From assembly GCA_944371785.1 (NCBI GenBank), contig CALVXZ010000002.1, forward strand, positions 3,033 through 67,032: 64,000 bases of DNA, given 5' to 3'. Position 1 is the first letter of the stretch; the number at the start of each line of letters is the position of its first letter. The position numbers and the translations under genes were made by a program. The notes under the pieces are model-generated. The model had not been told where the DNA came from, made no database searches, and worked only from the letters and a program-made list of their open reading frames with translations. Shown here one piece after another: positions 9,921 to 62,876 of this stretch. The stretch comes from an uncultured Clostridia bacterium. Lineage in GTDB: Bacteria > Bacillota > Clostridia > Christensenellales > DTU072.

Positions 9921-9950
9921 TTCCGTTAAAATATACAAAATTAATGGAAT

Positions 9951-10540: not shown

Positions 10541-10555
10541 ATTCAATTTGTATAT

Positions 10556-28819: not shown

Positions 28820-28833
28820 CGAACAAATGTTCT
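28820..28833. promoter_or_regulatory. LexA (DinR) operator / Cheo box
   Basis: CGAACAAATGTTCT matches the Firmicute SOS-box consensus CGAACRNRYGTTYC at 13 of 14 positions. It is intergenic, and its 12-nt core is identical to the box at 58539-58552. Confidence 0.5.
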
Positions 28834-47664: not shown

Positions 47665-47871
47665 TTATTTAGTTTTAATGATTTGTTTGATCTCGTCGAT
47701 GTCTTCCTTTATCAATTCGACGATCTCCAATTTGTCCGCAAGCGAATTGATAAGGTTTTGGTATTTGGTTTCCCTGGCTTTGCTGTCCTTTATCTGAATG
47801 CAGAACAGAGCCACGAAAAGCATCGCCCAAAGTCCGGAATTAATCGCCGTTTCCCATATTTGTTCCCACAT
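47665..47871 (-). CDS. BhlA/UviB-family holin-like peptide
   Basis: 68 aa with a single N-terminal TM (SGLWAMLFVALFCIQI), then KDSKARETKYQNLINSL and a charged helical tail. This parallels BhlA/UviB (..[28 protein letters not shown]..). The RBS is GGAGG. Confidence 0.65.
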   Translation of the reverse strand: MWEQIWETAINSGLWAMLFVALFCIQIKDSKARETKYQNLINSLADKLEIVELIKEDIDEIKQIIKTK

Positions 47872-48049
47872 CGGTAACCTCCGTCGATAGCAACTCCCCG
47901 TAGAGCGAACTCAGCTCTTTCAGACAGCTCCTGCACAGTCGGAGCCTTGCCGCGGCGGGCGTACCCTGTCGGACTACCTGAAACTCGGCGTAGTTTCCGC
48001 AGCAGCCGTTGTCGCATTTTACCCTTATCGGCATTTTTTCCAATTTCAA
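47840..48049 (-). CDS. Small Cys-rich (putative zinc-ribbon) protein
   Basis: 69 aa with CDNGCC...CRSC. The RBS GGAGGG precedes a TTG start. It overlaps the holin-like gene by 32 nt. Confidence 0.4.
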   Translation of the reverse strand: MKLEKMPIRVKCDNGCCGNYAEFQVVRQGTPAAARLRLCRSCLKELSSLYGELLSTEVTDVGTNMGNGD

Positions 48050-48109: not shown

Positions 48110-49168
48110 CTATTGCTTTCTTTCAATGAAATTCCAATAGCCCAATTCGTTGAATTTGTCGGTGCCCAGCAACAACGCCAGATAATCGCGCGATTCTTCT
48201 ATCATTCTGCCGACTTCGTCGGGAGAATACCGCGAATAGAATTCCTTCGCCAAAGCCAGCCGCCTTTGATATTCGGCGGCTTTTTCGGTGCTGACTCCGT
48301 TTTCGCGCTCGAATTCGTTTTCCGCCTTCGCCGCTTCCAATATCGCCTCGTTCCTCTGCAGATACAGATCGGTCAGAAGCTCCTGCCTGTCCTTTTGGTA
48401 TTCGGCTTCGCGTTCCTTTATCTCGGCGTTGTAATCGTTGATCTCCTGCAGCCTTTTTTCTTCCTCGCCGCGCAGTTTCATCACCCCTTCCATAAGTTCC
48501 GCGGCGTACCTCAGATCGAACGCGCTCAGCGCGTTGCGGTATTCGGTTTCAGCCTGTTTCAGTTCCGAATCGATTTTGCGGTATTTAAGGTCGTATTCGG
48601 CGGTGATCGTTTCCAGCTCCTCGGCGGTCTTTTTTCGGATACTCTCGGCGCCCATATCGAAAATAGTGCTGTTCACCAACCCCTGCAGCACCATATTTTC
48701 GGTCAAAGCCGCCGCTTCGGCGCTTGCGGCAAGCCCCAATTCCCGTATAGCTTCGGCTTCGTCCGCCTCTGTTTCGGCGCGCGAAATTTCGGCTGATCCG
48801 GTTTTTTCGTCATAGCGGCTTTCCGCCTCCTCACGCTCCCCGGCATACTTCGCGTCCAATTCCGTCCTGACGGTTTCGGTGATCTCCTCCGAAGTCTTTG
48901 GCTTGTATTCGACGGGCTGAAGATCGAGGCTTTCGGGAATATCGCCGACGTCGTGATAATCGACGTTCAGTTTTTCGGCGCGGTATTTGGCGTCCAATTC
49001 CGTCAACGCCTCTATCAATTCGCGGCTGGAGCCCAATTCGTTGCCTTCGGGCACGTCCGTGTTCGGATCCTTTATTTCGTATTTATCGAAAAAACCGGCG
49101 ACCTTTTCGACGATTTCGTCCAAACCGAACTTGTTTTCCGAATCGGTTTTTTTACTGTTGTTCGCCAT
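48110..49168 (-). CDS. Acidic, predominantly alpha-helical/coiled-coil phage structural protein (function unknown)
   Basis: 352 aa with long E/K/A-rich heptad-like stretches. It occupies the third position after the coat gene. Confidence 0.55.
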   Translation of the reverse strand: MANNSKKTDSENKFGLDEIVEKVAGFFDKYEIKDPNTDVPEGNELGSSRELIEALTELDAKYRAEKLNVDYHDVGDIPESLDLQPVEYKPKTSEEITETVRTELDAKYAGEREEAESRYDEKTGSAEISRAETEADEAEAIRELGLAASAEAAALTENMVLQGLVNSTIFDMGAESIRKKTAEELETITAEYDLKYRKIDSELKQAETEYRNALSAFDLRYAAELMEGVMKLRGEEEKRLQEINDYNAEIKEREAEYQKDRQELLTDLYLQRNEAILEAAKAENEFERENGVSTEKAAEYQRRLALAKEFYSRYSPDEVGRMIEESRDYLALLLGTDKFNELGYWNFIERKQ

Positions 49169-49268: not shown

Positions 49269-50744
49269 TTATGGCACATACTTTCCGTATTCGTCGAAAC
49301 TGACGACGGCTTCGGATATCCTGATCGGATCCTCGGAACGGAAATACAGGCGTATTTCGCCGCCCGGAGGCGTTTTCAAAGGCGCGAAACTGACTCCGGA
49401 ACCGCCGTAAATTTTAAATTCGTCCGCGCCGTTTTCCGATTCCGCGCCGACGGTGACGGGATAGCCGCTGCCGACGTATACGGAGCGCAGTTTCTTCAAA
49501 GCCTCGGCGTCGCCGGGCTTTACGATCCCCGAACTCCAATATTTTTCGGAAGGAACGCCGTAAAATTTGCCGTCTTCCGTCAAAGATCCCGCGAAAAATC
49601 CGTAATTTCCCGAAAGCGCCAACAAAACGCCTTCCGACAATTCACCCGGAACGGTAGAAAAATCTTCTATGCCGATGCCTCTGACGATGTCCGTCGAATC
49701 GGCTCCGAACGCAAACAAAGCGTTGTTCAGAGTTATCAGCCCTTCGCTGTCTTCAAGTCCCACCTTTTCCGTTCCGAAGGAACGCATTTTACAGCTGAGG
49801 AAGTATTTGTCCATCATATATCCGCCGACGGCGTTTTCTGCGGATTCTATCAGCGGAGTAAATTCGGCGAAAGGTTTTTCGACGGAAGCCGTATCCAGCC
49901 TGTAAATTTCCTCCCCGGCTACGAAATAAATGCTTCTGCCGTCGGAAGCTATCGAACGCGGTCTGACGGGATACGACAAGGTCAGCACTTCTTTTATCGA
50001 AAAATCCTGCGGATCCGCCAGAGCGGTCAGCTTATACACCGAATATTCGCGGAAAACGTAGACTGCGGAACCCATCGAAACGGCTTTCAGCATCCTGCCG
50101 CCAGAACCCATCAGATAGATCTTACCGCCGCCTTCTTCTGGAGCAAACACAAACGGATCCAACAGCTTTGAAAACACCACGGCGTTTTCGTCCGGCAGCA
50201 CCCCGAACACCCTGTCGTAATGTATACAGGCGCCGACTATGCCCGCAGAATCTCCGATCTCTTCCAAACCCGACGTTCCGAATTTGTACATAGCGTTCGG
50301 AGTAAATATCAACGTGTAGTCCTCGCCTTCGGAAAGATAGTTCAAAAAGCTGATCTCGTTCGACAGATCTTTTATCCCCATATAATAAACGAACGATTCT
50401 TCCGGTTCGTCCAAAGAACACGAATAAAACCTTCCGACGTCCGAATACACCAACAATCTGCCGCCGGAAGCTTTGTCGTAATGACGGTGAACGCGCAGAA
50501 TGTTTTCCCCCTCGTTTTGTAAAGACGGCAATCCCTCGCCCGATTTACCCTTTGCGAACTCTATGCCGAACGAATGTTTCAACAGTCCTTCCGATAGCCT
50601 TATATTGTATCCATAGCTACCGATTGAAAGTCTTTTCGGCACAATATCGTTTCTGGAATCGAATCCGGAAAAGGATCCTATGCGATAGGTAAGACGTCGT
50701 ACGGAAGGATATTTTTCGTTTCTGAAGCTACTGTTGAATTTCAT
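49269..50744 (-). CDS. Phage structural protein, beta-rich (possible tail hub/nozzle)
   Basis: 491 aa with a repetitive beta-strand-like pattern and an ATGA overlap with the upstream gene. Its position and size resemble P22 gp10 (472 aa). Confidence 0.55.
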   Translation of the reverse strand: MKFNSSFRNEKYPSVRRLTYRIGSFSGFDSRNDIVPKRLSIGSYGYNIRLSEGLLKHSFGIEFAKGKSGEGLPSLQNEGENILRVHRHYDKASGGRLLVYSDVGRFYSCSLDEPEESFVYYMGIKDLSNEISFLNYLSEGEDYTLIFTPNAMYKFGTSGLEEIGDSAGIVGACIHYDRVFGVLPDENAVVFSKLLDPFVFAPEEGGGKIYLMGSGGRMLKAVSMGSAVYVFREYSVYKLTALADPQDFSIKEVLTLSYPVRPRSIASDGRSIYFVAGEEIYRLDTASVEKPFAEFTPLIESAENAVGGYMMDKYFLSCKMRSFGTEKVGLEDSEGLITLNNALFAFGADSTDIVRGIGIEDFSTVPGELSEGVLLALSGNYGFFAGSLTEDGKFYGVPSEKYWSSGIVKPGDAEALKKLRSVYVGSGYPVTVGAESENGADEFKIYGGSGVSFAPLKTPPGGEIRLYFRSEDPIRISEAVVSFDEYGKYVP

Positions 50745-51274
50745 AGCAATCTCCTTGGCGGAATGTTGAATACCCTGCCGCGTTTGGTGAGGTTATTTAC
50801 TGCGGATTCGAATCTGTTGCGGAAAAATACCGCCTCGTCCAATAACGAGCTCCTGTAGAAATATTCCGCCGCGGCGCCTACCGCAACGACGTATTCGGAA
50901 AACTGCGGCGGCAGAATCAGTTCGTCGCTGTTCTGCGTAGGGATAATGTAATACAAATAATCTATTTCGACTTCCCCCGTGTAATCTTCCGCCTGTATGA
51001 ATTGAGGATATTCGGTAAATTTCAACCGGCCGGCAGGACTTTTTATCGCAAGTATTTCCCTGACGCGGTATTTCAGGTCTTCGTAAAAGATCTTGCCCCT
51101 TTCCGCTTCGGTTTTTTCCTTTGTCCTCAGCGGAATGTATTCGGTAACCATTTCCGTATATACGGTGATCACGGAATCTCGGATCTTGTTATAAATCTGC
51201 ACGGGCATATCCAACAGGGTTTCGTTGACCCCTATTATGGAAGCCACTCGTTCAATGATATCCTGAAGTGTCAT
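50741..51274 (-). CDS. Phage head-completion/adaptor-position protein
   Basis: 177 aa, immediately after the coat gene. Its position and size resemble P22 gp4 (166 aa). Confidence 0.5.
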   Translation of the reverse strand: MTLQDIIERVASIIGVNETLLDMPVQIYNKIRDSVITVYTEMVTEYIPLRTKEKTEAERGKIFYEDLKYRVREILAIKSPAGRLKFTEYPQFIQAEDYTGEVEIDYLYYIIPTQNSDELILPPQFSEYVVAVGAAAEYFYRSSLLDEAVFFRNRFESAVNNLTKRGRVFNIPPRRLL

Positions 51275-51336: not shown

Positions 51337-52554
51337 TTACGCGCCTGCGGTTTCATCGTCGGTCGTTGCGGAGGTATCGGCGACGGGGTCGGTGATCCCG
51401 TACAATCTGCCTTGCGCCCTCGGGAACGCCGCGACGAAGTTCGCGTATTTTACCAAAGTGGCGGTATATACGGCTTTTCTGTCCAATTGGTTCAGGATAG
51501 AACCTTTTTCGCCTTCCAGCCATTCCCAATCGTTCAACTCCACCAATTTCAAAGACGGAGTATTCAGGAAATACATTTCGCCGTCGGGAGCGAATCTTTC
51601 GCTGACCACGGGCACGCCGTTGAATGACAGAGTTTTGAAACCGCCGTCAAGGTTCAGGTAATCGATGTTCCTGCGGTTTAATTCAAGCTGTTTCAGGTAC
51701 TGACGTCTGGTCTTTGCCGAACAGACTATCATATCGGGTTCAGCGCCCGCCCTCAGGGAAGCCGAATCGAAAAATTCTTGCATTGCGTCTACGGTAAGTT
51801 CGGCGCCGAGATTCTGGGTCATCGGTTTAATGCCGGGATTTGCCGTCTTGTTCACGCCGTAATATGAAACCGCGTCGCCGAAAAGATACGGCAGACCGTT
51901 CACTTCGTTGTCTTTGGACTTCTGAACGTACACCTCGTCGCCGGCTTGCGCGGTAACGGAGCCCATTTCTTCGTGACGGACTATGAACTTTTTGTTCTCG
52001 TGATCGACGTCGTAAACTCTTACGCCGCCTTTCAGCAACGATCCGCTGCGATAGATATCGACTTTCATTCCGCCTGCCAACATTCTGGTGTTGTCGACGG
52101 TGACTTCGGGCATACTTCCCGATTTATAGGACTCCACGGTAGCCAGCAAGCCGTCGCCGTCCATCCAAAGCATTCTGTTCAGGTTAAAGCGCGCGGAGCG
52201 CACCATAGCGCGGATTTCGTTATTCAGAATGCCGACGATGCCCGAAGCGTTGTCGCGCGAAGCGCGCAAAGCCTTATCGGTGATGTCTATGACGCCGTAG
52301 ATATTTTTCAACGGCACGCTGAACGCCGCCCTCATACATTCGCCGGCGTCGGGGAGTTCTCCGGCTTCCTCGGTAGTCCCCAATCCGCCGCAGATACCGT
52401 ACATGGTCGGCACAACGGCTTCCTTACCGCGTATTTCCGCGGCGGTTTTTTCTATTGCCTGATATAACGGGCTGACGCCGGTGTTCAACGAAGCGCAAAT
52501 GGCGTCCAGATAATACGATTTCAATACTGAATCGATGGATTCGACTGATAACAT
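51337..52554 (-). CDS. Phage major capsid (coat) protein
   Basis: 405 aa, directly after the scaffold gene and before the adaptor-like gene. No prohead protease gene is present, which points to a scaffold-dependent assembly type. Confidence 0.7.
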   Translation of the reverse strand: MLSVESIDSVLKSYYLDAICASLNTGVSPLYQAIEKTAAEIRGKEAVVPTMYGICGGLGTTEEAGELPDAGECMRAAFSVPLKNIYGVIDITDKALRASRDNASGIVGILNNEIRAMVRSARFNLNRMLWMDGDGLLATVESYKSGSMPEVTVDNTRMLAGGMKVDIYRSGSLLKGGVRVYDVDHENKKFIVRHEEMGSVTAQAGDEVYVQKSKDNEVNGLPYLFGDAVSYYGVNKTANPGIKPMTQNLGAELTVDAMQEFFDSASLRAGAEPDMIVCSAKTRRQYLKQLELNRRNIDYLNLDGGFKTLSFNGVPVVSERFAPDGEMYFLNTPSLKLVELNDWEWLEGEKGSILNQLDRKAVYTATLVKYANFVAAFPRAQGRLYGITDPVADTSATTDDETAGA

Positions 52555-52557
52555 ATC

Positions 52558-53184
52558 CTATTCTCCTTTCATTTTTTTCAAATGTTCCGCGGCAAGTTTC
52601 CCTGCTTCCGCAATGTTATGCGGTCTCGCGGATATCCCTGCGGGAGAAAGCGCCCTCATAACGGGTATCCTGGGCGGCTGCGCTGTAATTTCCTGCGATT
52701 GCGTTTCGCTTATGCCGATTTCGGCTGTAGCGGCCTCCGAAGATACTGCGTTTGTGCGGCGCACGGATTCGGTCTGTTCGACGGCTGCCGTCGCTTGGTT
52801 TTTTTTCGTTTCGCCGTAGCTGCGACTTGCCAGCACGTTCAGCAACGCTTTTTCCAGGCAGTCCTCGCTGGATATCAGCTGTTGATTTGCCTTCAGATAT
52901 TCGCCGATTTCGCGTCCCAACGTACCGGACACAGGGTACTTGTCGTGCAGCTCCTGCAGCTTTTTTTCCCAAACCTCTTCCTGTTTCCTGGTTTCGAACT
53001 TTCCTTCAAGTTCCTTCAGCCGTTGGGAACGCCTGGTAAATTCGGCTTCCAACGCGTTATAGGCTTTTAAGAGTTCGTCGCCGTTCGAAAACTTTCCGAA
53101 AGAGTCCGTTTTCACCTTGTCGTCCCGATCGGTTGCCGCCGGGGCGGGATTTGATACGGATTGTTCTGTTGCAGTGTTTTCCAT
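52558..53184 (-). CDS. Phage scaffolding protein
   Basis: 208 aa, helical and charged (ELLKAYNALEAEFTRRSQRLKELE), located between portal and coat. Confidence 0.6.
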   Translation of the reverse strand: MENTATEQSVSNPAPAATDRDDKVKTDSFGKFSNGDELLKAYNALEAEFTRRSQRLKELEGKFETRKQEEVWEKKLQELHDKYPVSGTLGREIGEYLKANQQLISSEDCLEKALLNVLASRSYGETKKNQATAAVEQTESVRRTNAVSSEAATAEIGISETQSQEITAQPPRIPVMRALSPAGISARPHNIAEAGKLAAEHLKKMKGE

Positions 53185-53201: not shown

Positions 53202-54965
53202 TTATTGCATTTCCGCCTGCGCCGCCGCTTTTGCGGACAGCGAAGCCAATATTTTATGTTTTCTGACGTGTTTTTCTATCCTTTCCAAGGCTTCCTTGCC
53301 GATATCGGCTCCTGCGGCAAAGGAGCTGTGTTCGGAAATGTGCAAGGCGTGTTCGTCCAATTCGGAAGCGTCCGCGTCCTTTCCCGAATTCATCAGCGCG
53401 TTTTCGCGTTCGGCTTTTTTCAGATGCACTTCTTCGGAGCTTTTTGCCGCTTCCCAATTCCCGAACCCTAACATTTCGACTATCTTTGCGCGGTTACGGT
53501 TGGATATCATTCCGTTTTCGTCACTCAGCAAGCCGTATCTCATCAGCTCCAGCACCATATTTTTTCTGGTGGCAGGCGATTCGACCATTTCGGAATCGGT
53601 TTCCTGCACCACGTCGTCGCCGCCGAGTTCGGAACCGATAAAAGCCACGGCTTCAAGCTCTCCGGAATCGCCGGAGATCAGCACCAGCCTTTTTTTGTCC
53701 GCGAACTGTTTGTAAAGCCGCAGGCTCTGCCTTGCGACCTCCTTTGCGGCGGAGCGGATCGATTCCGTAGTGACGGTCATTCTGGCGTTTTCCTGTTCCA
53801 GCAAAAGACTCAGGGCGTATCCCGACATGGAGGTCAACCCCGAACCGGAAACGCTAAGCACGTTGGAAACGCCCGAAATGCTCCTGAATTCTTCGATGAG
53901 TCTGTCCTCTTCGTCCCTGAATTCGGCGGGCACGGTGCCGGGATTCATCGGAACGGGCGGATTGGAGCCCTGGCGGTAAACGACGACGCGTCCGGGATAA
54001 AAGCCTTCTTCTTCCAACGATTCAACGTCGACGGCACCGTCTTCGACGGCGTAAACTCCGCCCGAAAGCCGCGCCATAAATTCGTGTTTTCTGTTTTTAA
54101 CGGCGTTGTAAGCGCGCTGGACGGGTATCAGGCGTTCTATCAGGCTGGCTCCGAAAAAGCTGCCCGGAGCATTCAGCGCGCACTGTCTGACGAACGGAAA
54201 ACCGCGTTTACCGTTGGCGCCGTTTATGTACGGCAGCGCGCCGTCGTGGATAAGTTTGTCGCCTGCGACTATGGTAAGTCTGCCGTCCGGATCCTCTTTC
54301 GAGGGTGCGGAATACCTTTCCAAAACCAATGCGTAGCCCGTGCGGCAATCGTCCTTACCCAATCTGACGGGATCGCCTTCCAGCCCGTAAATATCGACGT
54401 CTTCGGGCTGAGCTTCGACTCCCCACAATTCGTATATCGCTTCCACGGGGTAGATTTTCGCGTGGATGACGCTCCTCAGCGACGACAGCGACGGCGCGGA
54501 CAAATCGTCGGGATATATCTCCTGCGGAGGGCATACGGCGATCTTTACGCCGCCGTTTTCGTCCCATACCACCTTATAAAAAGCCGTGCCGGTCAGTTCC
54601 GCCCAATAATTTGCCTCGGCAACAAGCGCGGTAAAGTTGTTGTCCCTTAACGTGGCGTCGATGATCTTTCCGGAAAGCTTTGCGGCGTTGATCTCTTTTT
54701 CGTCCGCGCCGGCAGGGCGCACGTTGACCGCGCAGTTCACCCTGGAAAATTTGGCAAGCCGCGTTTCTATGATCGGCGCGATATGATTGTAAATCTCCTT
54801 GTCGCGCCTGTCGTCCGTCACGTCGCCGGCGGGATCCAGAAACACGTTCTGTTTTCCCTGCATAAATTTGATGTTCAGTTTCCATTTCGATTCCTGAAAA
54901 CGGCGGCGGTTTCTCCTCTCCTCGAAGTCCGAACGTATTTCAAGAACCAGATCTTGTGTATCCAT
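53202..54965 (-). CDS. Phage portal protein
   Basis: 587 aa, directly after TerL. The N-terminal region (KWKLNIKFMQGKQN) and overall pattern are portal-like. Confidence 0.75.
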   Translation of the reverse strand: MDTQDLVLEIRSDFEERRNRRRFQESKWKLNIKFMQGKQNVFLDPAGDVTDDRRDKEIYNHIAPIIETRLAKFSRVNCAVNVRPAGADEKEINAAKLSGKIIDATLRDNNFTALVAEANYWAELTGTAFYKVVWDENGGVKIAVCPPQEIYPDDLSAPSLSSLRSVIHAKIYPVEAIYELWGVEAQPEDVDIYGLEGDPVRLGKDDCRTGYALVLERYSAPSKEDPDGRLTIVAGDKLIHDGALPYINGANGKRGFPFVRQCALNAPGSFFGASLIERLIPVQRAYNAVKNRKHEFMARLSGGVYAVEDGAVDVESLEEEGFYPGRVVVYRQGSNPPVPMNPGTVPAEFRDEEDRLIEEFRSISGVSNVLSVSGSGLTSMSGYALSLLLEQENARMTVTTESIRSAAKEVARQSLRLYKQFADKKRLVLISGDSGELEAVAFIGSELGGDDVVQETDSEMVESPATRKNMVLELMRYGLLSDENGMISNRNRAKIVEMLGFGNWEAAKSSEEVHLKKAERENALMNSGKDADASELDEHALHISEHSSFAAGADIGKEALERIEKHVRKHKILASLSAKAAAQAEMQ

Positions 54966-54975
54966 GCTGCCTCCT

Positions 54976-56427
54976 TTAATGTTTTGTAGCGCGTCTTAAA
55001 CGCAGCAATCTTTCTTTGTATAAAGCCGTTTTGGAAAGTTTTTTCCCGCGCGGCTTGTTTTCGGGGCGGGACATTATGAAATAGCGCAATTCGTCCATAG
55101 CGTGGTCGTTGCGCTTTACGGGAGTATCTCCGTTTCCCCACCAATAGCCCTTCAGCTCCTTTATCATCATCGGGCAATCGGAAAAAACGTATATCGCCGG
55201 CGGCCTTTCGGCAAACAGCCGCCGCACTCGGCTGATACCCGAAAACAGATCCTTGTTCACCGACGTGTTGACGGCTATGCCGTTTTCGAAAAAGAGTTCC
55301 GAAACCGATTTTGCCGCAGCCAAAGTGCGCTGATTCGCCGCAGGATCTATCAACGCTTCCAACTTTCCGTCGGCGCGGCGACGCCACCCCAGCCTGTCGG
55401 CAACGCGGAATATTTTTTCGGAATGCGCCTTTACGTCCAGCCCTGCCTCGTAATGTTCGCCCACGACGTAAACCGTTCCGTCGTAGTCGCAGCAATAGAA
55501 ATGACAGGACAGCGGATTTTTTAATCCGGGGTCTATCGATATAGCCGATTGCCATTCGGGCGGAACGTCAAAAGGCTCGATAACGTGTACCGAAGGGTCG
55601 AATTCGGGATACACAAGTCCGCATTCCGCGCGAAACCGCCCGAACCTTCTGGATTCCAATTCCTCTTCCGAAAGCGTGGCGGAAAGCCTGTCTGTTTCCT
55701 CTTTCATCAAAAAAGGATTGTCCGCCCACTCCATTTGCTCCGTCCATATTTCGGGGTCGGAGGCAGAATTCAGATAGATCTCGTCATACACCCAGGTCAG
55801 CCCTTTTAACGGCGTCATCGTCCCGAAGATATCCCCCGACTTGTCCAGGACGCGCATACGGCATTCGTCGTAAATTTCCTTCGGAGGCTCCTCGTCGAAC
55901 CATACGAAATCCAACGAAGCCCCCTGAAAGCATTCCCTGCCCTGCGCCGCCGATTTAAAACCGAGTTTGGATATTCCGCCGAACACGTTTTTTATGTAAA
56001 CCGTGTCGATAACGCCGCCTTCGGGAAAATCCTTTGAACCTTCCGCCATGGTGACGCGCTCTATCCAATCGGGATTCAAGTACCTTAAAACTTTAGCCTG
56101 CGCGACGTCGCGTTGTACTTCGCGGCTGACCGAAACCGCCCAACCGCTGACGTTTTTTCGGTTTTTGCGGTACGGATGACAGCCCCGGCACATCCATACG
56201 GCTTCTACCGCGCCGCATTCGGTTTTACCGCTTCTGTTGCCTCCGAATACCCACCGGTTCCGTGCTTCGGACTTGTGAAAAGCCAACTGTTTCAGATGCA
56301 CCTTTTCGCCCGTATTGTAATCGGCTAGTTTGTTCTTTTCCTTTCTCTGCCTCTGTTCCGCCTCTATCTTCAGCAATCTTTTAACGACTTCCTCTGCGGA
56401 GTCCCGAGTAATATCTTTCCGCGGCAT
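54976..56427 (-). CDS. Phage terminase large subunit
   Basis: Contains Walker A FGGNRSGKT, Walker B LDFVWFDEEP and a C-terminal nuclease motif NDHAMDELRYF. Confidence 0.85.
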   Translation of the reverse strand: MPRKDITRDSAEEVVKRLLKIEAEQRQRKEKNKLADYNTGEKVHLKQLAFHKSEARNRWVFGGNRSGKTECGAVEAVWMCRGCHPYRKNRKNVSGWAVSVSREVQRDVAQAKVLRYLNPDWIERVTMAEGSKDFPEGGVIDTVYIKNVFGGISKLGFKSAAQGRECFQGASLDFVWFDEEPPKEIYDECRMRVLDKSGDIFGTMTPLKGLTWVYDEIYLNSASDPEIWTEQMEWADNPFLMKEETDRLSATLSEEELESRRFGRFRAECGLVYPEFDPSVHVIEPFDVPPEWQSAISIDPGLKNPLSCHFYCCDYDGTVYVVGEHYEAGLDVKAHSEKIFRVADRLGWRRRADGKLEALIDPAANQRTLAAAKSVSELFFENGIAVNTSVNKDLFSGISRVRRLFAERPPAIYVFSDCPMMIKELKGYWWGNGDTPVKRNDHAMDELRYFIMSRPENKPRGKKLSKTALYKERLLRLRRATKH

Positions 56428-56719
56428 CGCGTAAACCGTCCTTTATGTTATTGTCCTCCGCCCTGAGGTAACTGTTTTCGGCGCGTTCGTTGGCAGACTC
56501 GATCTCTTTCAATATCGATTGCATCCTTTCGATCCGGGTACGCTCGGCGTCGTACACCATTCTGACGTCCACGGTCGGATAAGGATAGATCAGCTGTATG
56601 CCGCCGCGGCTGTCACGCAAAGAAAATCTGCCCGTCTCCGCGTCGAAGTGGAGTTCGTATTCGGGGTCGATCTCTTTCAGCCTTGCGGCGACGTCCAGAA
56701 CGTCGTGGGTGATCTTCAT
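56381..56719 (-). CDS. Hypothetical phage protein immediately upstream of terL
   Basis: Start set to the ATG at 56719 (MKITHDVLDV...) with a GGGAGG RBS. 112 aa. It overlaps the terL start by 47 nt. Confidence 0.45.
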   Translation of the reverse strand: MKITHDVLDVAARLKEIDPEYELHFDAETGRFSLRDSRGGIQLIYPYPTVDVRMVYDAERTRIERMQSILKEIESANERAENSYLRAEDNNIKDGLRDAAERYYSGLRRGSR

Positions 56720-56797
56720 AAAACCTCCCGGCATATTCTGCCCGTTTAATTTAAATTCGGCGTATTTTCGCACGCCGTAAGGGATAAAATTTATTTT

Positions 56798-57619
56798 ATG
56801 AAAGCCTTATTTGCGGCTATATTCATAATGATTTTCGGAATCGGCGGCACCGCATACGCGGACGGCACTCCGCACATAAAAGTCGAAGGCGAAGTGTGGA
56901 TGGCAGACGATCAGGGCGTGCGGCTGTTCACGCTGCCCGAAAGCTACTATATCCGTATCAATAATCTGGACGAATCGTTTTATTACATCACCTTCAACGG
57001 CGTCAGCGGAAAAGTGGACAAAAACTCGGTAGTCACGGTGGGATACCACACGGAAGCCCCCGGAACTCAAAAGGATCTGACGATATCCGACGAATTCGGG
57101 GAATTTTCGGCGATAAATTTAAAATCTTCGCCCGACGTCGCTTCCGAATCGGTATGCGAAGTCCCGATAGACGCCACCATAGTCTTTATCGGCGAATACC
57201 CTAAGGAAAAATTGTGGTATTACGTCCGCTACGGCGAAACGTACGGTTATGTGCGCGCTGACAGAACCGATATGCCCACGCCCGATTATCCGGCTTTCGT
57301 TCCGGAGCCCGAACCCGATCTGCCGGCTTCCGCCGATCCCGACGGCTCCGCGGAGCCCGAAGACGCCGAGGACACGGTATTGAAAATCGTCGTAATCGCG
57401 GGGCTGGCGATACCTGCTCTGGCTCTGATAATATTCCTTTTCCGCCGCGGAGGCAAACGACGTTACCGTTACGAAGACTACGGCTATAGGCGCGGTGACG
57501 GCGAAAGATATTATTCCGAAAACGAACGCGCCCGTATCGGCGAACGCGACTACCGCAACGAAGTTTACCGTCCGTTCGACCGCGACGATTCCGAACGCTA
57601 TACCAATTCCGACGATTGA
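56798..57619 (+). CDS. Secreted/anchored protein with SH3b-like repeats, one TM and an R/Y/D/E-rich cytoplasmic tail
   Basis: Signal peptide MKALFAAIFIMIFGIGGTAYA. Two segments end in ..YYITFNGVSGKVDK and ..WYYVRYGETYGYVRAD (SH3b-like). A proline/acidic linker is followed by a TM helix (IVVIAGLAIPALALIIFLF) and a RRYRYEDYGYRRGDGERYY tail. This is the only plus-strand gene inside the module. Confidence 0.65.
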   Translation: MKALFAAIFIMIFGIGGTAYADGTPHIKVEGEVWMADDQGVRLFTLPESYYIRINNLDESFYYITFNGVSGKVDKNSVVTVGYHTEAPGTQKDLTISDEFGEFSAINLKSSPDVASESVCEVPIDATIVFIGEYPKEKLWYYVRYGETYGYVRADRTDMPTPDYPAFVPEPEPDLPASADPDGSAEPEDAEDTVLKIVVIAGLAIPALALIIFLFRRGGKRRYRYEDYGYRRGDGERYYSENERARIGERDYRNEVYRPFDRDDSERYTNSDD

Positions 57620-57621
57620 AT

Positions 57622-57936
57622 CTAAATGCTCTCCGTCGGTTTTTTCGTCTTTTTTCCCTCCAACGCCTTCAATTCCTTTAAAAGCCGTTCCTTTTCGGCG
57701 GCAAGTTCTTCGTCGCTATAATCGGAAAAGCTGTCGCCTCCGTCCAATTCCAGGCAGGCTTTCGCCGCGGAAACGTCGGGAGGGTAATATTTTATCTGGG
57801 TTTTTTCTTTTACCGCACGGCGGTTGCCGTCCTCGTCCAGAACGTATTCAATAACTCTTTCTTCCGCCTCCAGACCCTCGGCGCGTTTTCTGAGCCCTTC
57901 AATGACGCGCGCCCTGTTCTTATCGCTTCTTTTCAT
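57622..57936 (-). CDS. Small basic/acidic phage protein, possible terminase small subunit
   Basis: Start set to the ATG at 57936 with a GGAGG RBS. 104 aa. The YYPPDVSAAKACLEL segment resembles the PDxxAxxFxL segment of some TerS proteins. This assignment is weak. Confidence 0.35.
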   Translation of the reverse strand: MKRSDKNRARVIEGLRKRAEGLEAEERVIEYVLDEDGNRRAVKEKTQIKYYPPDVSAAKACLELDGGDSFSDYSDEELAAEKERLLKELKALEGKKTKKPTESI

Positions 57937-57974
57937 ACTGCCTCCGAATGTTTGTGTGCGCAAAAAAAGGGCTG

Positions 57975-58000
57975 TCCGCCCCGTTTCGAAAATCCTTCGT
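57975..58000 (-). terminator. Weak terminator or attenuator after the activator gene
   Basis: The minus strand reads GGGC-GGACA-GCCC followed by T7. The stem is only 4 GC pairs. Confidence 0.3.
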
Positions 58001-58016
58001 TTGCTTTCCGCCCCTT

Positions 58017-58508
58017 CTATCCGTTGCTTTTGCCGAAACGCGCGGCAAATCTGTAACCGGCATCCACCTCTTCGGCGGCGTCGATGAAGTACGGCTCCGT
58101 ATTAAAATATTCAAGTATGTTTTCTTCGTCAAAGCCCAACATCTCGACGTAAAACTGCACCTTCCTTAAAGCCTTGGAGCGTATGTACTTTAAACCCGAA
58201 CGGGTCAACCCGAAAGCCTTCATTATGCTTTCCTTGTCCTTCCCTTCGAAAAATTCCGCCGAAATCAGCTTTCTTTCGCGTTCGCTTAAAAGACCCAACG
58301 TCGCGTTCATCGAAGTGTGAAAACGCTTCAGAGCGTCCAATGTCATCGCCGCGACCAGATAATCGGTCAGCACTCTTTCGGCGTCTATCCCCGTAATGTT
58401 GTAATCGAAACTCCTCAGCCGTTTGATCCTTGCGGAATACTTCCGCTTCAGATCGTTCAGATCGGGATAGACTGTTAAAATAATTTTCGCCATTTTAGCG
58501 GACAGCAT
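58017..58508 (-). CDS. Sigma-70 region-4-like / ArpU-RinA-type phage late transcriptional activator
   Basis: 163 aa. LSERERKLISAEFFEGKDKESIMKAFGLTRSGLKYIRSKALRKV is a sigma region-4 type HTH. It is the first gene of the module, upstream of the packaging genes, which is the usual position of ArpU/RinA-type activators. Confidence 0.55.
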   Translation of the reverse strand: MLSAKMAKIILTVYPDLNDLKRKYSARIKRLRSFDYNITGIDAERVLTDYLVAAMTLDALKRFHTSMNATLGLLSERERKLISAEFFEGKDKESIMKAFGLTRSGLKYIRSKALRKVQFYVEMLGFDEENILEYFNTEPYFIDAAEEVDAGYRFAARFGKSNG

Positions 58509-58538
58509 CCGAATCCCCCTTTTTAGGTTTAAGATTTG

Positions 58539-58552
58539 CGAACATTTGTTCG
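58539..58552. promoter_or_regulatory. LexA (DinR) operator / Cheo box at the activator gene TSS
   Basis: CGAACAAATGTTCG (read on the minus strand) is a perfect palindrome matching CGAACRNRYGTTYC at 13 of 14 positions. It starts 7 nt downstream of the -10 hexamer. Confidence 0.6.
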
Positions 58553-58559
58553 TATTTTT

Positions 58560-58588
58560 ACTATATCACCGCTTCTCCGCAATGTCAA
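58560..58588 (-). promoter_or_regulatory. Near-consensus sigma-A promoter of the activator gene
   Basis: The minus strand reads TTGACA (58588-58583), 17 nt, (TGa)TATAGT (58565-58560). Confidence 0.55.
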
Positions 58589-58819
58589 GTCTCAGGGAAA
58601 AAGAAAAATGAGCTGTCCGAAAATTCGGACACTTCCTGCCGCCGAAGCCGCTCTTCCGGTAGCTTAAAAGGAGAATTTTATATGCATTTTTTTAAACGAA
58701 AAAAGGGTAATCGCGCGAAAAAAGCGACAACGATAAATATCGCGTCTTTTTTTGAAATTATTTGTGTTTTTACGGTTTTGAGGGTCTGTCCTTCCGGAAG
58801 CCGCGCCCGCCCTTTTAAT

Positions 58820-60427
58820 CTATCCTTTCCGGTTTTCGCCTTTTGCCGCGCCGCTCTCCGCCGCATCCGCGCTTTCGGTCGCTTTCGCGCTTTCGGTCGC
58901 TTTCGCGCTTTCGGTCGTATCCGCTATCTCCGCCGCATTTTCGGAAACGGCGTTTGCGGAAGAAGTTTTCTCCTCGGTCAAGGGCTCCGCTTCGCCGTCG
59001 GGCACGGGAACCGGCTTTCCCGAAAGAGCTTTTTCGGAAAACCGCTTTTTATAGTATATTATAAACAGCGTCGCGGTAAACGTCACGGCGATGACGTCGG
59101 CTACGGGCTCCGCCATAAATACCGCGGTGGCTTTATCCGCAGTGTAGATCAACGGCATTATATATATTAAAGGTAATAACAATATGAATTTTCTGGCGAC
59201 CGCAACGACTATAGACTGCGCGGCGGAGCCTATCGAAGTGAAAGTCATTTGGCACGCCATCTGTATCCCGAAAAGGAACATAGCCCCCAGATACACCCTG
59301 ACCATAGGCGCGGCATAGTTGATGAGTTCCGGCTCCGAATTGAACATCGCTACGAATTTGTCCGGTATCGCCATTGCCAGGATCCACAAACTCACCGAAT
59401 ACGCCAGGCTGGATGTCAGCAGAAGGAAGAAGCATTTTTTGACTCTCTGCGTGTTCCCTGCCCCGAAATTATAACTGATTATCGGCTGTGCGCCCTGTCC
59501 CAGCCCGTTCAGAGGCAGCAAAGCGAACTGCATCACCGACGAGCAGACCGTCATTGCTCCGACGGCTATATCGCCGCCGTACTTTTGCAAGGACGATTGA
59601 AAACAGATCAGGATTATCGATTCGCTGGCTTGCATCACGAAAGTCGCAAGCCCCAGCGCCAATACGGGCAGGATCACGGAAAACTTTAACGCAAAGAATT
59701 TCGGTTTCAGCCGCCAATACCCTTTTTTCATCAGGAAAAACGCCATGACCCACGCCGTCGAAAGCGCCTGAGAAATCACGGTGGCTATCGCCGCGCCCTG
59801 CACTCCGAATCCGAAAGCGTATATAAACAGAGGATCCAACGCTATGTTGGCGGCAGCGCCTATTATTACGGAGATCATACTGTAACGCGTGAATCCCTGC
59901 GCGGTAATAAAGGCGTTCATTCCCAGCGTCAACTGTACGAAAATCGTGCCTGCGGCATATATGCGCATATAATCCGAAGCGTATCCTATCGTGGCGTCGG
60001 AGGCTCCGAACAGCATTAACAGCGGCCGGTTGAATATCAGCAGCAGCGTCGTCAGCGTTACCGATATCGCTACCTGCAACATAAATGAATTGCCCAGTAT
60101 GCGTTCCGCACCTTCGTTGTCGCCTCTGCCCATTTGTATGGACGCTCTGGGCGCGCCTCCGGAAGCCGCGAACGCCGAGAACGCGGACACCAACATTATC
60201 AGCGGCAGGCATACTCCCAATCCCGTCAAAGCCGCCTGTCCTTCGCCGGGGATGTGCCCGACGTAGATGCGGTCGACGATATTGTACAGCATATTGATTA
60301 TCTGTGCCGTGACGGTCGGCACGGCAAGACGAAACAGCAGCTTCCCTACGGGAGCGCTTCCCAGCTTTTCCTTATCGGACGATCCGAAATTTTTTACCGA
60401 AGCGGCGTTTTCCATATTCAACGACAT
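58820..60427 (-). CDS. MATE-family efflux transporter with a repetitive acidic C-terminal tail
   Basis: About 12 TM helices, with the N-terminus PVGKLLFRLAVPTVTAQIINMLYNIVDRIYVGH typical of the MATE/NorM/DinF family. Confidence 0.85.
   Translation of the reverse strand: MSLNMENAASVKNFGSSDKEKLGSAPVGKLLFRLAVPTVTAQIINMLYNIVDRIYVGHIPGEGQAALTGLGVCLPLIMLVSAFSAFAASGGAPRASIQMGRGDNEGAERILGNSFMLQVAISVTLTTLLLIFNRPLLMLFGASDATIGYASDYMRIYAAGTIFVQLTLGMNAFITAQGFTRYSMISVIIGAAANIALDPLFIYAFGFGVQGAAIATVISQALSTAWVMAFFLMKKGYWRLKPKFFALKFSVILPVLALGLATFVMQASESIILICFQSSLQKYGGDIAVGAMTVCSSVMQFALLPLNGLGQGAQPIISYNFGAGNTQRVKKCFFLLLTSSLAYSVSLWILAMAIPDKFVAMFNSEPELINYAAPMVRVYLGAMFLFGIQMACQMTFTSIGSAAQSIVVAVARKFILLLPLIYIMPLIYTADKATAVFMAEPVADVIAVTFTATLFIIYYKKRFSEKALSGKPVPVPDGEAEPLTEEKTSSANAVSENAAEIADTTESAKATESAKATESADAAESGAAKGENRKG
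58869..58917. repeat. 18-nt tandem repeat (about 2.7 copies) within the MATE 3' end
   Basis: GCGCTTTCGGTCGCTTTC is repeated head-to-tail. It encodes the ESAKAT repeats of the C-terminal tail. Confidence 0.7.
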
Positions 60428-62707: not shown

Positions 62708-62781
62708 GGCGCCATAGCCAAGTGGTAAGGCACGGGTCTGCAAAACCCTTACCCCCGGTTCAAGTCCGGGTGGCGCCTCCA
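62708..62781 (+). tRNA. tRNA-Cys (GCA)
   Basis: Folds as a cloverleaf by hand: acceptor GGCGCCA/TGGCGCC, D arm GCC-AAGTGGTAA-GGC, anticodon loop CTGCAAA, T arm CCCGG-TTCAAGT-CCGGG, encoded CCA. Confidence 0.9.
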
Positions 62782-62789
62782 TTTTTTTT

Positions 62790-62876
62790 GCCGTTATGGC
62801 GGAATTGGCAGACGCAAGGGACTTAAAATCCCTCGATGGCAACATCGTGTCGGTTCGACCCCGACTAACGGCACCA
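62790..62876 (+). tRNA. tRNA-Leu (TAA)
   Basis: Acceptor GCCGTTA/TAACGGC, anticodon stem-loop AGGGA-CTTAAAA-TCCCT, long variable arm, T arm GTCGG-TTCGACC-CCGAC, encoded CCA. Confidence 0.9.

Follow-up and report, generated by a model that had tools for sequence, protein, structure and literature searches.

Direct control of accessory functions by LexA is established for colicins, the uviA bacteriocin circuit, GIL01 and the CTX phage. In known temperate phages, activators of the ArpU/RinA type act at the end of a cascade which is held under the phage's own CI-type repressor. PBSX of Bacillus subtilis is an SOS-inducible chromosomal phage-like element with a sigma-like positive factor, Xpf, and packages random host DNA. 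FpGTA of Faecalibacterium is, to our knowledge, the only gene-transfer-agent (GTA)-like element of the gut that has been described. The LexA operator of Firmicutes, GAAC-N4-GTT[C/T], was defined experimentally and has been verified for Bacillus and several Clostridia (PMC4234289). The uviA-bcn-uviB region of pIP404 and pBCNF5603 carries a putative LexA site and is inducible by UV and mitomycin (PMC4459074). FpGTA is encoded in a podovirus-like operon of 10.5 kb with ten ORFs, and PBSX packages fragments of 13.4 kb (PMC12946183); GTA-like packaging of approximately 4-6.3 kb of host DNA was found in Christensenellaceae MAGs, for which no gene cluster was assigned (PMC12946183, supplement).

The 64-kb stretch of Christensenellales DNA analyzed here (the window) contains a gene cluster of approximately 10.9 kb, with terminase, P22/SU10-type portal, capsid, podovirus nozzle and BhlA holin genes, headed by the gene of a 163-aa regulator with a candidate LexA box in its promoter region (Table 1). 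Our reading of the whole locus, to which we assign a probability of about 0.7, is that an SOS switch controls a sigma region 4-type activator, which in turn controls a domesticated GTA-like cluster.

The locus resembles the C. perfringens uviA circuit in that a putative LexA site, a small sigma-type activator and a membrane protein of the BhlA/UviB family are combined in one unit; with the putative LexA site and the UV/mitomycin induction of pIP404/pBCNF5603 (PMC4459074), the uviA/uviB analogy drawn in the preliminary description is apt. UviA, however, is a sigma factor of the TcdR family (group 5) (PMC4885068), a group defined by regions 2 and 4, whereas the 163-aa protein is region 4-like only and falls outside it. 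The uviA circuit is plasmid-borne and serves a bacteriocin, whereas here the unit is chromosomal, is found order-wide and has terminase, portal, capsid and nozzle genes as cargo. With FpGTA the cluster shares its size (approximately 10.5-11 kb, ten to twelve ORFs), TerS-like, TerL, portal, scaffold, MCP and short-tailed-phage proteins, the lack of replication and lysogeny genes, near-ubiquity in a clade of gut Clostridia and the absence of some tail and lysis functions from the main operon. This comparison with the FpGTA I operon (including MCP RCH50849.1 and portal RCH50851.1) was made by architecture alone and concerns the main cluster; FpGTA has a second locus of 5.5 kb with fibre, RBP, holin and endolysin genes. 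The host orders differ (Oscillospirales versus Christensenellales), and no regulator or SOS control has been described for FpGTA (PMC12946183).

ArpU, RinA and DUF1492 proteins are, like the 163-aa regulator, small (approximately 130-170 aa) and all-helical, with a C-terminal sigma region 4-like helix-turn-helix, and are encoded immediately upstream of terminase genes. In contrast, the matches of the 163-aa family all fall below the curated cut-offs, and the promoter of the window activator itself bears a putative host LexA operator. GIL01, a tectivirus of Bacillus thuringiensis, also has no conventional phage repressor, and host LexA bound to SOS boxes silences its lytic genes (PMC4551915, PMC6182141); it is, however, a replicating linear plasmid-prophage in which LexA acts at the early promoter P1 with the phage co-factor gp7, and its late promoter P3 is activated by the LexA-like gp6 and not by a sigma-like protein. 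Nothing resembling gp7 is apparent among the genes assigned in the window. RcGTA of Rhodobacter capsulatus combines a domesticated particle cluster, an activator (GafA) with sigma-like DNA-binding regions and an influence of LexA (PMC9638019). It is siphovirus-like and alphaproteobacterial, and LexA is needed for its production, indirectly via cckA, whereas the box in the window predicts direct repression of the activator gene. PBSX is likewise a Firmicute chromosomal phage-like element with a sigma-like late activator, but is myovirus-like, has its own Xre repressor and is a killer particle.

Table 1. Positions of the regulatory elements and genes in the window, with the basis of each assignment.
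Feature	Position	Strand	Basis or remark
Terminator-like hairpin TGTCCGAATTTTCGGACA followed by T-rich tract	58614..58631	-	Terminator-like site in scan; 26 nt upstream of -35
-35 hexamer TTGACA	58588-58583	-	Strand reading and promoter scan
Extended -10 TGaTATAGT	58568-58560	-	17-nt spacer from -35
Candidate LexA (Cheo/SOS) box CGAACAAATGTTCG	58552-58539	-	Approximately +1 to +14 relative to predicted TSS
RBS AAAGGGGGA	58515..58523	-	Inside the 30-nt stretch between box and ATG
Putative late-gene activator, sigma-70 region 4-like (ArpU/RinA/DUF1492-like), 163 aa	58017..58508	-	Start codon ATG at 58508-58506
Terminator-like hairpin plus T7	57968..57982	-	Directly 3' of regulator gene
Small protein, weakly TerS-like, ORF of 113 aa	57622..57963	-	phrog_309 1.2e-4
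Antisense-oriented gene inside cluster, 273 aa	56798..57619	+	Pfam SH3_3, weak
112-aa protein overlapping TerL start	56381..56719	-	Gene calls; GGGAGG precedes ATG at 56719
Large terminase (TerL)	54976..56427	-	Pfam Terminase_6N 6.6e-12
Portal, P22/SU10 type	53202..54965	-	Pfam P22_portal 5.5e-14, SU10_portal 1.4e-10
208-aa protein in scaffold position	52558..53184	-	Position alone; no family match
Major capsid protein (MCP)	51337..52554	-	phrog_14242 1.5e-41; Pfam SU10_MCP sub-threshold
177-aa protein in head-tail adaptor position (P22 gp4-like by position and size)	50741..51274	-	Gene order
Podovirus tail nozzle/hub, 491 aa	49269..50744	-	AF2 (pLDDT 75.5) and Foldseek
352-aa coiled-coil protein, DUF7934	48110..49168	-	Pfam DUF7934 2.2e-34
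69-aa Cys-rich small protein	47840..48049	-	ORF; no family match
BhlA/UviB-type holin-like protein, 68 aa, last cluster gene	47665..47871	-	Pfam Holin_BhlA 5.2e-17, phrog_2429 5.8e-14
Second box CGAACAAATGTTCT	28820-28833		Intergenic; stop of Big_3-domain gene on one side, hairpin-plus-T8 on the other

Re-reading of the minus strand placed the promoter-operator region at exactly 58509-58588, where the preliminary description had put it, and together with a consensus scan reproduced the order given there: TTGACA, 17 nt, TGaTATAGT, 7 nt (AAAAATA), the box, 30 nt containing the RBS, and ATG. With a score of 11/12 plus the TG, this was the top promoter-like site within 56300-58900. The box starts 8 nt past the extended -10, in agreement with the earlier placement at approximately +1 of a predicted transcription start site (TSS), and abuts the predicted RNA-polymerase site, as would be expected of a LexA operator. 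Comparison of loci showed that the -35 is kept as TTGACw across the clade of the window and that the pattern TGnTAxxxT is common to L001-L009 and L011-L015.

The hairpin upstream of the -35 probably terminates transcription of the MatE gene that precedes it and would shield the switch from read-through; its stem is kept in the three nearest lineages in the alignment. In several distant loci, similar hairpin-plus-T-run elements were seen by eye 5' of the box. At the other end of the regulator gene, immediately 3' of it, the sequence GGGC..GCCC-TTTTTT is common to three aligned lineages. With both hairpins read as terminators, the regulator gene is a terminator-flanked single-gene unit.

The box matches the consensus CGAACRNRYGTTYC, which is that of Bacillus and Clostridia and may not be the host's, at 13 of 14 positions as previously counted, with an exact GAAC-N4-GTTC core. 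It is not the perfect palindrome it had been taken for: 6 of the 7 base pairs are symmetric, the central AA is not self-complementary and the reverse complement differs at 2 positions. Within the 64 kb, the exact CGAACN4GTTCG occurs at this box only. At 1 mismatch the same pattern gave 6 matches versus 5.7 expected, the GAACN4GTTC core gave 2 versus 1.29 expected, and the pattern CGAACRNRYGTTY gave 3 versus 0.46 expected, a number reached in 2 of 100 shuffles. Taken alone, these in-window statistics are suggestive and constitute modest evidence for the box.

Two rare intergenic boxes had been reported for the window. Both are intergenic, but the chance level depends on the pattern used and the significance of the second box was overstated. 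The hairpin-plus-T8 beside the second box reads as the terminator of the Big_3-domain gene, and approximately 95 nt separate the box from the -35 of the mraZ promoter further downstream (promoter read by eye; mraZ-mraW genes identified by Pfam). A metagenome scan for a box upstream of MraZ relatives, in which all relatives returned were at most 39% identical, found none. This site is not promoter-like and precedes a terminator-like hairpin, and was left out of the evidence. A third Cheo match (50567), located inside a coding sequence, and an extra exact box in L004-L006, which is coding, has a GC-rich centre and is polymorphic, were treated as chance. Searches by tblastn with B. subtilis LexA and RecA sequences gave no lexA or recA match in the window, in 112 related loci (1.3 Mb) or in same-species extensions totalling 20 kb.

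The box stands beyond chance because it is conserved across species, and not because of the counts within the window. An iterative HMM search recovered regulator homologues, at 13-65% identity, ahead of the cluster in 45 species genomes out of the 80 with the best TerL matches. A box, called as CGAAC-N4-GTTCG with at most 2 mismatches and at most 260 nt upstream of the regulator, was present in 39 of these 45 species-level genomes (21 exact, 12 with one mismatch and 6 with two), versus a background per 300 nt of 0.0005 exact matches, 0.012 at up to 1 mismatch and 0.17 at up to 2. The AAC-A/GTT core was invariant in all 39. Between -1700 and -1300 from TerL there were 18 exact boxes in 28 kb, versus 5 in 1.25 Mb elsewhere.

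The box is identical in L001-L009 and in same-species contigs of other samples. In three lineages with regulators only 61-65% identical, the box, the -35 and the extended -10 are 100% conserved, and the upstream intergenic DNA is scrambled in the alignment. With synonymous sites saturated (dS 0.8-3.8), a neutral 14-mer should not survive. In more distant genomes, where the regulator is down to 13-20% identity and the intergenic DNA around the box has diverged, the box is still present. Among the loci compared, no other non-coding element is as well conserved across the order as the box, and its conservation at orthologous promoters goes beyond the neutral expectation, as would that of a Firmicute LexA operator.

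All lineages of the window clade, including L011-L015, keep a canonical promoter in which the -10 is followed by the box at a distance of 7-11 nt. Under a strict two-hexamer definition, a recognisable housekeeping promoter ended 3-13 nt upstream of 12 of the 39 boxes, versus 4% of random positions; since only these 12 pass the strict sigma-A scan, the geometry with the box at +1 is claimed for the window clade only. The distance between box and regulator ORF grows to 150-200 nt in Christensenellaceae, where additional conserved TGTCATA/TATGACA motifs are repeated around the box; L064, the only one of these loci read throughout, has a further canonical promoter nearer the gene, outside the box. 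LexA may therefore be one control layer among several there. Neither the regulator nor the box was detected in 24 of the 63 loci with sufficient upstream sequence. Several regulator-less loci show a TGTCATAAAC motif ahead of TerL.

The regulator matched Pfam Sigma70_r4 (PF04545) below threshold (E=1.3e-3, 18.6 bits versus a cut-off of 24.1) and phrog_36, annotated as transcriptional regulator, at 2e-4; the profile of its family matched sigma region 4 structures of the PDB at E=1e-6. The AF2 model (pLDDT 91.5) has two long helices as its N-terminal half. In Foldseek it superimposed on the sigma-4 domain of 3hug with a TM of 0.83, an rmsd of 1.2 A and a probability of 1.00, at a weak E-value of 0.25, and its structural neighbours in Foldseek/BFVD were small phage sigma-r4 proteins. 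As modelled, the regulator thus has a helix-turn-helix fold of the sigma region 4 type. No sigma region 2 family was found in it or in 30 relatives, and whole-sigma models aligned, where shown, via their C-terminal region 4 part. In a set of 31 relatives, matches to the ArpU and RinA families (TIGR01637/TIGR01636) were few and weak: 3 relatives matched ArpU (best 2e-5) and 4 matched RinA (best 2e-3). The window regulator itself had no ArpU or RinA match at E<=0.01 and no match among 50,697 phage records. Of the earlier designation as a sigma-r4/ArpU-like activator, the region 4 fold is upheld by profile, AF2 and Foldseek, while the protein remains below the curated family cut-offs. Both in the window and in the 45 species, the regulator gene immediately precedes the packaging and morphogenesis genes, which it may activate.

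In contigs of the same species, the gene following the regulator is annotated with a length of 104 aa; homologues of its product were seen directly after TerL in other lineages. The antisense gene codes for a protein with a signal peptide, two SH3b-like domains, a Pro/Glu linker and a C-terminal TM helix. A gene of approximately 230-270 aa in the same place and orientation was present in every locus inspected (window, L001, L009, L014, L024, L064, L083); by tblastn it was detected in 10 of 80 species loci, with a dN/dS of 0.18. A role as anti-sigma factor was ruled out for this protein, which is secreted, SH3b-type and C-terminally anchored, with a short and variable cytoplasmic tail. The 112-aa ORF is the probable first gene of the late operon, and the promoter scan gave no other strong promoter-like site upstream of the late genes.

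The MCP is approximately 25% identical to actinophage MCPs. For the 177-aa protein no family or significant PDB sequence match was obtained. PDB sequence searches with the 491-aa protein gave nothing significant, and its identity as a nozzle comes from structure prediction alone: by Foldseek the model matched the Pa223 tail (3.4e-17, TM 0.63), P22 gp10 (8e-11), VP1, GP4, T7 gp12 and SU10, with E-values from 3e-17 to 1e-9 overall. These nozzle matches, together with the P22/SU10-type portal, point to proteins of a short-tailed phage. Pfam and PHROGs profile searches detected no integrase, repressor or replication genes in the cluster, nor does it contain an endolysin, tail fibre or receptor-binding gene. 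Its neighbours are ordinary host genes (MatE, ZIP, NadD, TsaE). The profile searches thus bear out the absence of a phage repressor noted in the preliminary description, as well as the terminal BhlA/UviB-type gene, whose Holin_BhlA match is above the Pfam cut-off. A capsid had been named there as the cargo; it is present, but together with a podovirus tail nozzle and as part of a GTA-like, order-wide cluster.

At least 555 species genomes carry TerL relatives, and the 80 best matches (59-89% identical) all come from Christensenellales. The cluster is found in at least 80 species-level Christensenellales genomes, with the same architecture in the loci inspected. Its genes show dN/dS values of 0.06-0.30, indicating purifying selection, and dS values like those of flanking host genes. 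The cluster is syntenic with that of close relatives, beyond which conserved flanking synteny was not found. A recent prophage of a known type was rejected on the lack of phage-record matches for the regulator and the low identity of the MCP to those of actinophages. From its sequence and distribution, the cluster is a domesticated element kept by selection across the Christensenellales and no prophage. As a structural and packaging cluster free of replication, integration and lysogeny genes, which purifying selection retains in its host clade, it most likely represents a GTA-like element.

In the mechanism that we propose, the region 58509-58631 would function as an insulated SOS switch. The upstream hairpin would stop read-through from the MatE gene, and the near-consensus promoter, which should be strong alone with the housekeeping sigma factor, would be occluded by a LexA dimer on CGAACAAATGTTCG. 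Upon DNA damage, active RecA would cause self-cleavage of LexA and free the promoter. A short monocistronic mRNA with a 45-nt leader, ending at 57968-57982, would then code for the sigma region 4-type protein, and this would switch on the late genes, for which a good housekeeping promoter is lacking: TerS-like, TerL, portal, scaffold, capsid, adaptor, podovirus nozzle, DUF7934 and BhlA holin. The outcome would be short-tailed particles filled with DNA and cell lysis. Direct gating of the activator by host LexA, as first suggested, is supported in silico by the box in 39 of 45 genomes, by the fold and by the gene content, from which we infer that LexA binds here.

A constitutive or silent promoter with a chance palindrome in its AT-rich leader would be in keeping with the weak in-window statistics for relaxed patterns. 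Against it stand the boxes that 45 species show at the orthologous position, of which 21 are exact and 18 near-exact, where 0.0005 exact boxes are expected per 300 nt, and the retention of the box despite saturated synonymous divergence; the order-wide counts effectively refute this reading, which is scarcely credible. The 14-mer could instead be the operator of another helix-turn-helix regulator, of the host or of the element, which reads GAAC-N4-GTTC and leaves the module unconnected to DNA damage. The clade's own LexA regulon lies outside the data examined, the AAAT centre and flanking AAA are kept more strongly than a generic Cheo box needs, and the TGTCATA motifs point to further factors at these promoters. 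We consider this very improbable given the 13/14 consensus match with an invariant GAAC/GTTC-type core, the verification of the same operator for LexA in Bacillus and several Clostridia (PMC4234289) and the fact that the cluster encodes no other candidate DNA-binding protein. LexA could also bind and have a minor or redundant role, with production governed mainly by the convergent antisense gene for a membrane protein, the terminator that follows the regulator gene, a factor binding TGTCATA and the growth phase. The motif repeats around the box in Christensenellaceae, the second canonical promoter downstream of the box in L064, the TGTCATAAAC motif of several regulator-less loci and the antisense gene between regulator and TerL in every locus inspected are consistent with this possibility, as is the spontaneous appearance of FpGTA particles in stationary phase, with lysis of cultures in late stationary phase (PMC12946183). 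It seems unlikely, since the window clade has a single strong promoter with a single operator at the predicted start site, and no non-coding element of the locus is better conserved order-wide than the box.

The switch could also be real and its cargo not a GTA: a PBSX-like, SOS-induced killer or defective particle, a helper-dependent capsid-forming satellite borrowing the tail or lysis parts that it lacks, or a long-lived cryptic prophage remnant that serves the host in some other way. Tail fibres or spikes, ejection proteins and an endolysin are missing from the cluster, the PHROGs annotation of its terminal BhlA/UviB family is 'involved in bacteriocin production or immunity', and the genomic context varies across the order; the authors of the FpGTA study allow a PBSX-like role for their own element (PMC12946183). 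The failure to find integrase, replication, att-like or repressor genes speaks against a satellite or prophage. Purifying selection on all structural genes with host-like dS, the occurrence of one architecture, in the loci inspected, among at least 80 species and the random GTA-like packaging reported for Christensenellaceae (PMC12946183) speak for a GTA, but every one of these counterpoints is compatible with a killer particle. We regard a non-GTA cargo as somewhat unlikely, and a LexA switch ahead of a GTA-like cluster remains the preferred reading.

Since direct LexA control of accessory functions is already known, the mechanism is not new in kind. What is new is the setting, in which the switch would guard a sigma-like activator followed by a podovirus-like particle cluster that is domesticated, has no repressor and is conserved in 80 or more species of the gut order Christensenellales. 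Upon DNA damage, these bacteria probably produce phage-like particles, which may transfer genes. More tentatively, and at somewhat less than even odds, the Christensenellales may carry a podovirus-type GTA, seemingly co-diverging with the host and wired to the SOS response by a LexA operator, a sigma-4-like activator and a late operon, which would be the source of the particles with 4-6 kb of host DNA in human faecal virus-like-particle fractions and the first GTA known to be under direct LexA control. If the preferred reading is correct, mitomycin C, UV or fluoroquinolones would be a simple trigger, and a single gene could be over-expressed for making particles; the cluster would also be the candidate locus for the GTA-like DNA packaging seen for Christensenellaceae in human stool. 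The Christensenellales are a heritable, health-associated gut order, in which genotoxic stress and DNA-damaging drugs in the gut would then raise lysis and horizontal transfer. The locus would be an example of a domesticated virus under host control, in which a host operator at the late activator has taken the place of the phage repressor.

Reading of the minus strand from 58300 to 58800 showed that the coordinates and layout of promoter and box in the preliminary description, which placed a LexA box on the transcription start of a late activator, were exact. A consensus scan identified the top promoter-like site in 56300-58900 at this position: 11 of 12 positions match, and an extended -10 is indicated by its TG. 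Hairpins with T tracts flank the promoter and the gene, so that the regulator constitutes an insulated single-gene unit. Thirteen of the 14 box positions agree with the Firmicute Cheo consensus, as claimed; the box is not the perfect palindrome described, the symmetry being broken by its central AA. For Bacillus and Clostridia, this motif, GAAC-N4-GTT[C/T], has been established experimentally as the LexA operator (PMC4234289). Searches of the window, 112 related loci and 20 kb of same-species extensions turned up no lexA, recA or other core SOS promoter of the host clade, whose own operator may differ.

Coordinates of the features (L numbers denote related loci; the others refer to the window)
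Feature	Position	Strand	Remarks
Hairpin and T-rich tract	58631-58614	-	upstream of the -35
-35, TTGACA	58588-58583	-	
Extended -10, TGaTATAGT	58568-58560	-	17-nt spacer after the -35
Box, CGAACAAATGTTCG	58552-58539	-	AAAAATA between -10 and box
RBS-region sequence, AAAGGGGGA		-	in the 30 nt between box and ATG (58508)
Regulator ORF	58017-58508	-	163 aa
Hairpin and T-run	57982-57968	-	directly 3' of regulator gene; conserved
TerS-like gene	57622-57963	-	
Antisense gene	56798-57619	+	between regulator and TerL
Antisense gene, other loci	L064:9160-9918, L083:9142-9894, L024:9098-9799, L014:8887-9639		
TGTCATA-type motifs	L064:8447-8455, 8532-8541, 8585-8595		
Second LexA-like box, CGAACAAATGTTCT	28820-28833		shares a 13-mer with the main box
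Cheo-type match	50567-50579	+	coding, inside nozzle gene
Cheo-type match	L004:1827-1840		3' end of MatE coding sequence, some strains only
OLE (ornate large extremophilic) RNA	9939-10552	-	full-length; 432.8 bits, E=9e-124
321-aa ORF	8973-9938	-	directly after OLE RNA
argR-recN-type pair	5040-7213	-	ArgR 157 aa; 567-aa SMC_N/AAA_23
Two adjacent tRNA genes	62708-62873	+	upstream of DUF4364-ZIP-MatE block
Giant ORFs (3,100-3,900 aa; YDG, MBG_2)	L107:11624-20891, L110:1-8078		same-species contigs; flank both window ends

The exact sequence CGAAC-N4-GTTCG occurs in the window only at this box. With one mismatch allowed, six occurrences were observed against 5.7 expected, which is chance level; CGAACRNRYGTTY gave three matches (0.46 expected) and the GAAC-N4-GTTC core two (1.29 expected). 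Taken alone, these counts are no more than suggestive.

Two good boxes, both intergenic, had been reported. The second is intergenic, but it has no promoter context and was left out as evidence: it falls in the gap separating the stop codon of a Big_3-domain gene from a hairpin-plus-T8, read as the terminator of that gene, about 280 nt upstream of mraZ-mraW and about 95 nt upstream of the -35 of their promoter (read by eye), a position unsuited to repression. It may be a genuine, if non-canonical, LexA site or a chance match; distant metagenomic mraZ loci do not have such a box, and are too distant to be informative. The two remaining Cheo-type matches were judged to be chance, both being inside coding sequence; the one at the end of MatE has a GC-rich centre and is polymorphic. 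The window box scan found no LexA-like box near the argR-recN-type pair, which was assigned by length and order from same-species contigs.

Comparison between species distinguished the main box from background. The three nearest lineages share an identical -35, extended -10 and 14-base box, with a regulator only 61-65% identical and poorly aligning DNA further upstream of the promoter. Of 45 species-level genomes in which the regulator has a homologue, 39 show a box within 260 nt upstream when up to two mismatches are allowed (21 exact, 12 with one mismatch, six with two); in three of the six boxless genomes the available upstream sequence is shorter than 120 nt. Background rates over the same 1.26 Mb, per 300 nt, are 0.0005 for exact boxes, 0.012 with up to one mismatch and 0.17 with up to two. 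Exact boxes are concentrated in one 400-nt interval relative to TerL (18, versus five in the remaining 1.25 Mb), and those of the background are mostly coding as read, unlike SOS promoters. The AAC-A and GTT positions are invariant in all 39 boxes, the AAAT centre keeps its orientation in 32, and an AAA run lies 3-5 nt upstream in 35-37.

The regulator's own matches, to sigma-70 region 4 (Pfam E=1.3e-3) or to PHROGs phage transcriptional regulators, are all sub-threshold, and none reaches a curated family cut-off. Homologues were collected from related loci by iterative HMM and aligned; the resulting family profile matched region 4 of solved sigma factors (E=1e-6). Some relatives match Sigma70_r4 and r4_2 (best 3e-10), and a few ArpU (2e-5) and RinA. 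In the AlphaFold model, built from 45 database homologues (pLDDT 91.5), the C-terminal half superimposes on sigma-4 domains with a TM of 0.83 and an rmsd of 1.2 A. Over the whole protein, the best structural matches are to small phage proteins of 130-166 aa labelled as "sigma-70 region 4", DUF1492 or transcriptional activator; no carrier of the regulator was found among sequenced phages. The predicted region-4 fold supports the earlier assignment as a sigma-r4/ArpU-like, putative activator, the protein's own family matches being sub-threshold.

On the regulator strand follow genes for a small TerS-like protein, a 112-aa protein, TerL (Terminase_6N), a P22/SU10-type portal, a scaffold-position protein, the major capsid protein (phrog_14242, 1.5e-41; only some 25% identity with the capsids of actinophages), 177-aa and 491-aa proteins, DUF7934, a 69-aa protein and a BhlA holin. 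The last scored above the Pfam cut-off, in agreement with the terminal BhlA/UviB-type gene noted previously. The model of the 491-aa protein (pLDDT 75.5) matches podovirus tail nozzle/hub proteins (Pa223, 3e-17; VP1, GP4, P22 gp10, T7 gp12, SU10), and the particle would therefore have a short tail machine. A capsid gene is present, as described, but the cargo is predicted to be more than a capsid. Nothing in the cluster resembles an integrase, a replication protein, a tail fibre, an endolysin or, as stated before, a phage repressor. Ordinary host genes border the cluster: MatE, ZIP and DUF4364 on one side; NadD, an ECF component, TsaE and TsaB on the other. The neighbouring tRNA genes show no sign of being an integration site.

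The antisense gene (dN/dS about 0.18) is found in the same reversed orientation between regulator and TerL in every locus inspected. Its product is a secreted, membrane-anchored protein with a signal peptide, two SH3b-like domains, a Pro/Glu linker, one C-terminal TM helix and a short Arg/Tyr-rich tail; possible roles are immunity, receptor or transcriptional interference. The TerS-like gene precedes it in the window clade (L001-L009 and L011-L015), whereas in 70 other loci its homologues directly follow TerL, at about +1460 from the TerL start; this difference in gene order indicates a rearrangement within the cluster.

Exact-protein look-ups and homologues of 61-65% identity showed that related species carry this cluster and share its host context; the context was not seen beyond close relatives. 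A TerL profile scan with one genome per species gave relatives in at least 555 species. The 80 best of these, at 59-89% identity, are without exception Christensenellales MAGs; nearest is Candidatus Stercoripulliclostridium merdigallinarum, then come Borkfalkia, Christensenellaceae and Catabacter. Every locus inspected has the order regulator, antisense gene, TerL, portal, ~200 aa, MCP, ~180 aa, ~480-510 aa, ~300-360 aa, and in most a ~70-80 aa gene closes the cluster. When the window is compared with two sister lineages, its cluster genes show dN/dS values of 0.06-0.30, with dS (0.8-3.8) in the same range as flanking host genes. By these rates the cluster is a maintained element and not a decaying prophage, and it appears to co-diverge with the host.

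In 24 of the 63 species-level loci that extend 2.6 kb or more upstream of TerL (~40%; L016-L086), a regulator homologue upstream of TerL was undetectable, and with the sole exception of L024 these loci have no LexA box there either. Judging from this distribution, the element evidently changed control regions as it evolved. In the window clade the box follows the end of a TTGACw-17-TGnTAxxxT promoter by 7-11 nt and therefore covers the predicted start site. A strict two-hexamer promoter test was passed by only 12 of the 39 conserved boxes, versus 4% of random positions. In Christensenellaceae the box is 150-200 nt from the regulator ORF, in many loci flanked by TGTCATA/TATGACA repeats (by eye). 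In L064, the only locus read from end to end, three copies were seen, flanking the box and a second canonical promoter near the regulator gene; the related TGTCATAAAC lies about 35 nt upstream of TerL in several loci without adjacent regulator (L031, L033, L042, L048 and others). The TGTCATA motif, which the window's own promoter lacks, might be recognised by the sigma-like activator or by some other factor. Because promoter tests and Christensenellaceae box arrangements vary, the putative LexA input, ancient and widespread as these alignments read, is wired differently between families; controls besides LexA may exist.

Strong phylogenetic footprinting, regulator fold and gene content together support the proposal that LexA gates the activator promoter. 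LexA would occlude a strong, insulated housekeeping promoter; its removal upon DNA damage would allow the sigma-4-like protein to be made and to activate the late genes, for which the consensus scan found no strong sigma-A-type promoter of their own, leading to particle assembly and cell lysis. LexA binding, damage induction, activation by the regulator and particle formation are steps that we infer.

The closest regulatory analogue is uviA-bcn-uviB of C. perfringens plasmids, which is UV/mitomycin inducible and combines a putative LexA site with a sigma-type activator and a gene of the UviB/BhlA family (PMC4459074; PMC4885068), the three elements on which the analogy drawn previously holds. 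UviA, however, is a TcdR-family sigma factor, while in the window regulator a region-4-like domain alone was detected, and the cargo of the plasmid system is a bacteriocin instead of a phage-like cluster. The phage GIL01 also has no conventional phage repressor of its own and relies on LexA (PMC4551915, PMC6182141), which acts there at an early promoter with the co-factor gp7 and not on an activator promoter; in RcGTA the need for LexA is indirect, via CckA (PMC9638019). By architecture, the closest cargo analogue is FpGTA of Faecalibacterium, a 10.5-kb, ten-ORF, podovirus-like operon ubiquitous in its genus, with ~40-nm particles carrying 8.4-8.9 kb of host DNA (PMC12946183). The same paper reports GTA-like packaging of ~4-6.3 kb fragments in Christensenellaceae MAGs, with no gene cluster identified, and mentions SOS in one general remark and LexA not at all. 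The literature searched yielded no further mention of FpGTA and no description of the Christensenellales cluster. The cluster is probably GTA-like. The proposed switch mechanism is of a known kind; what is new is that it sits on the activator of a domesticated, podovirus-like cluster of order-wide occurrence.
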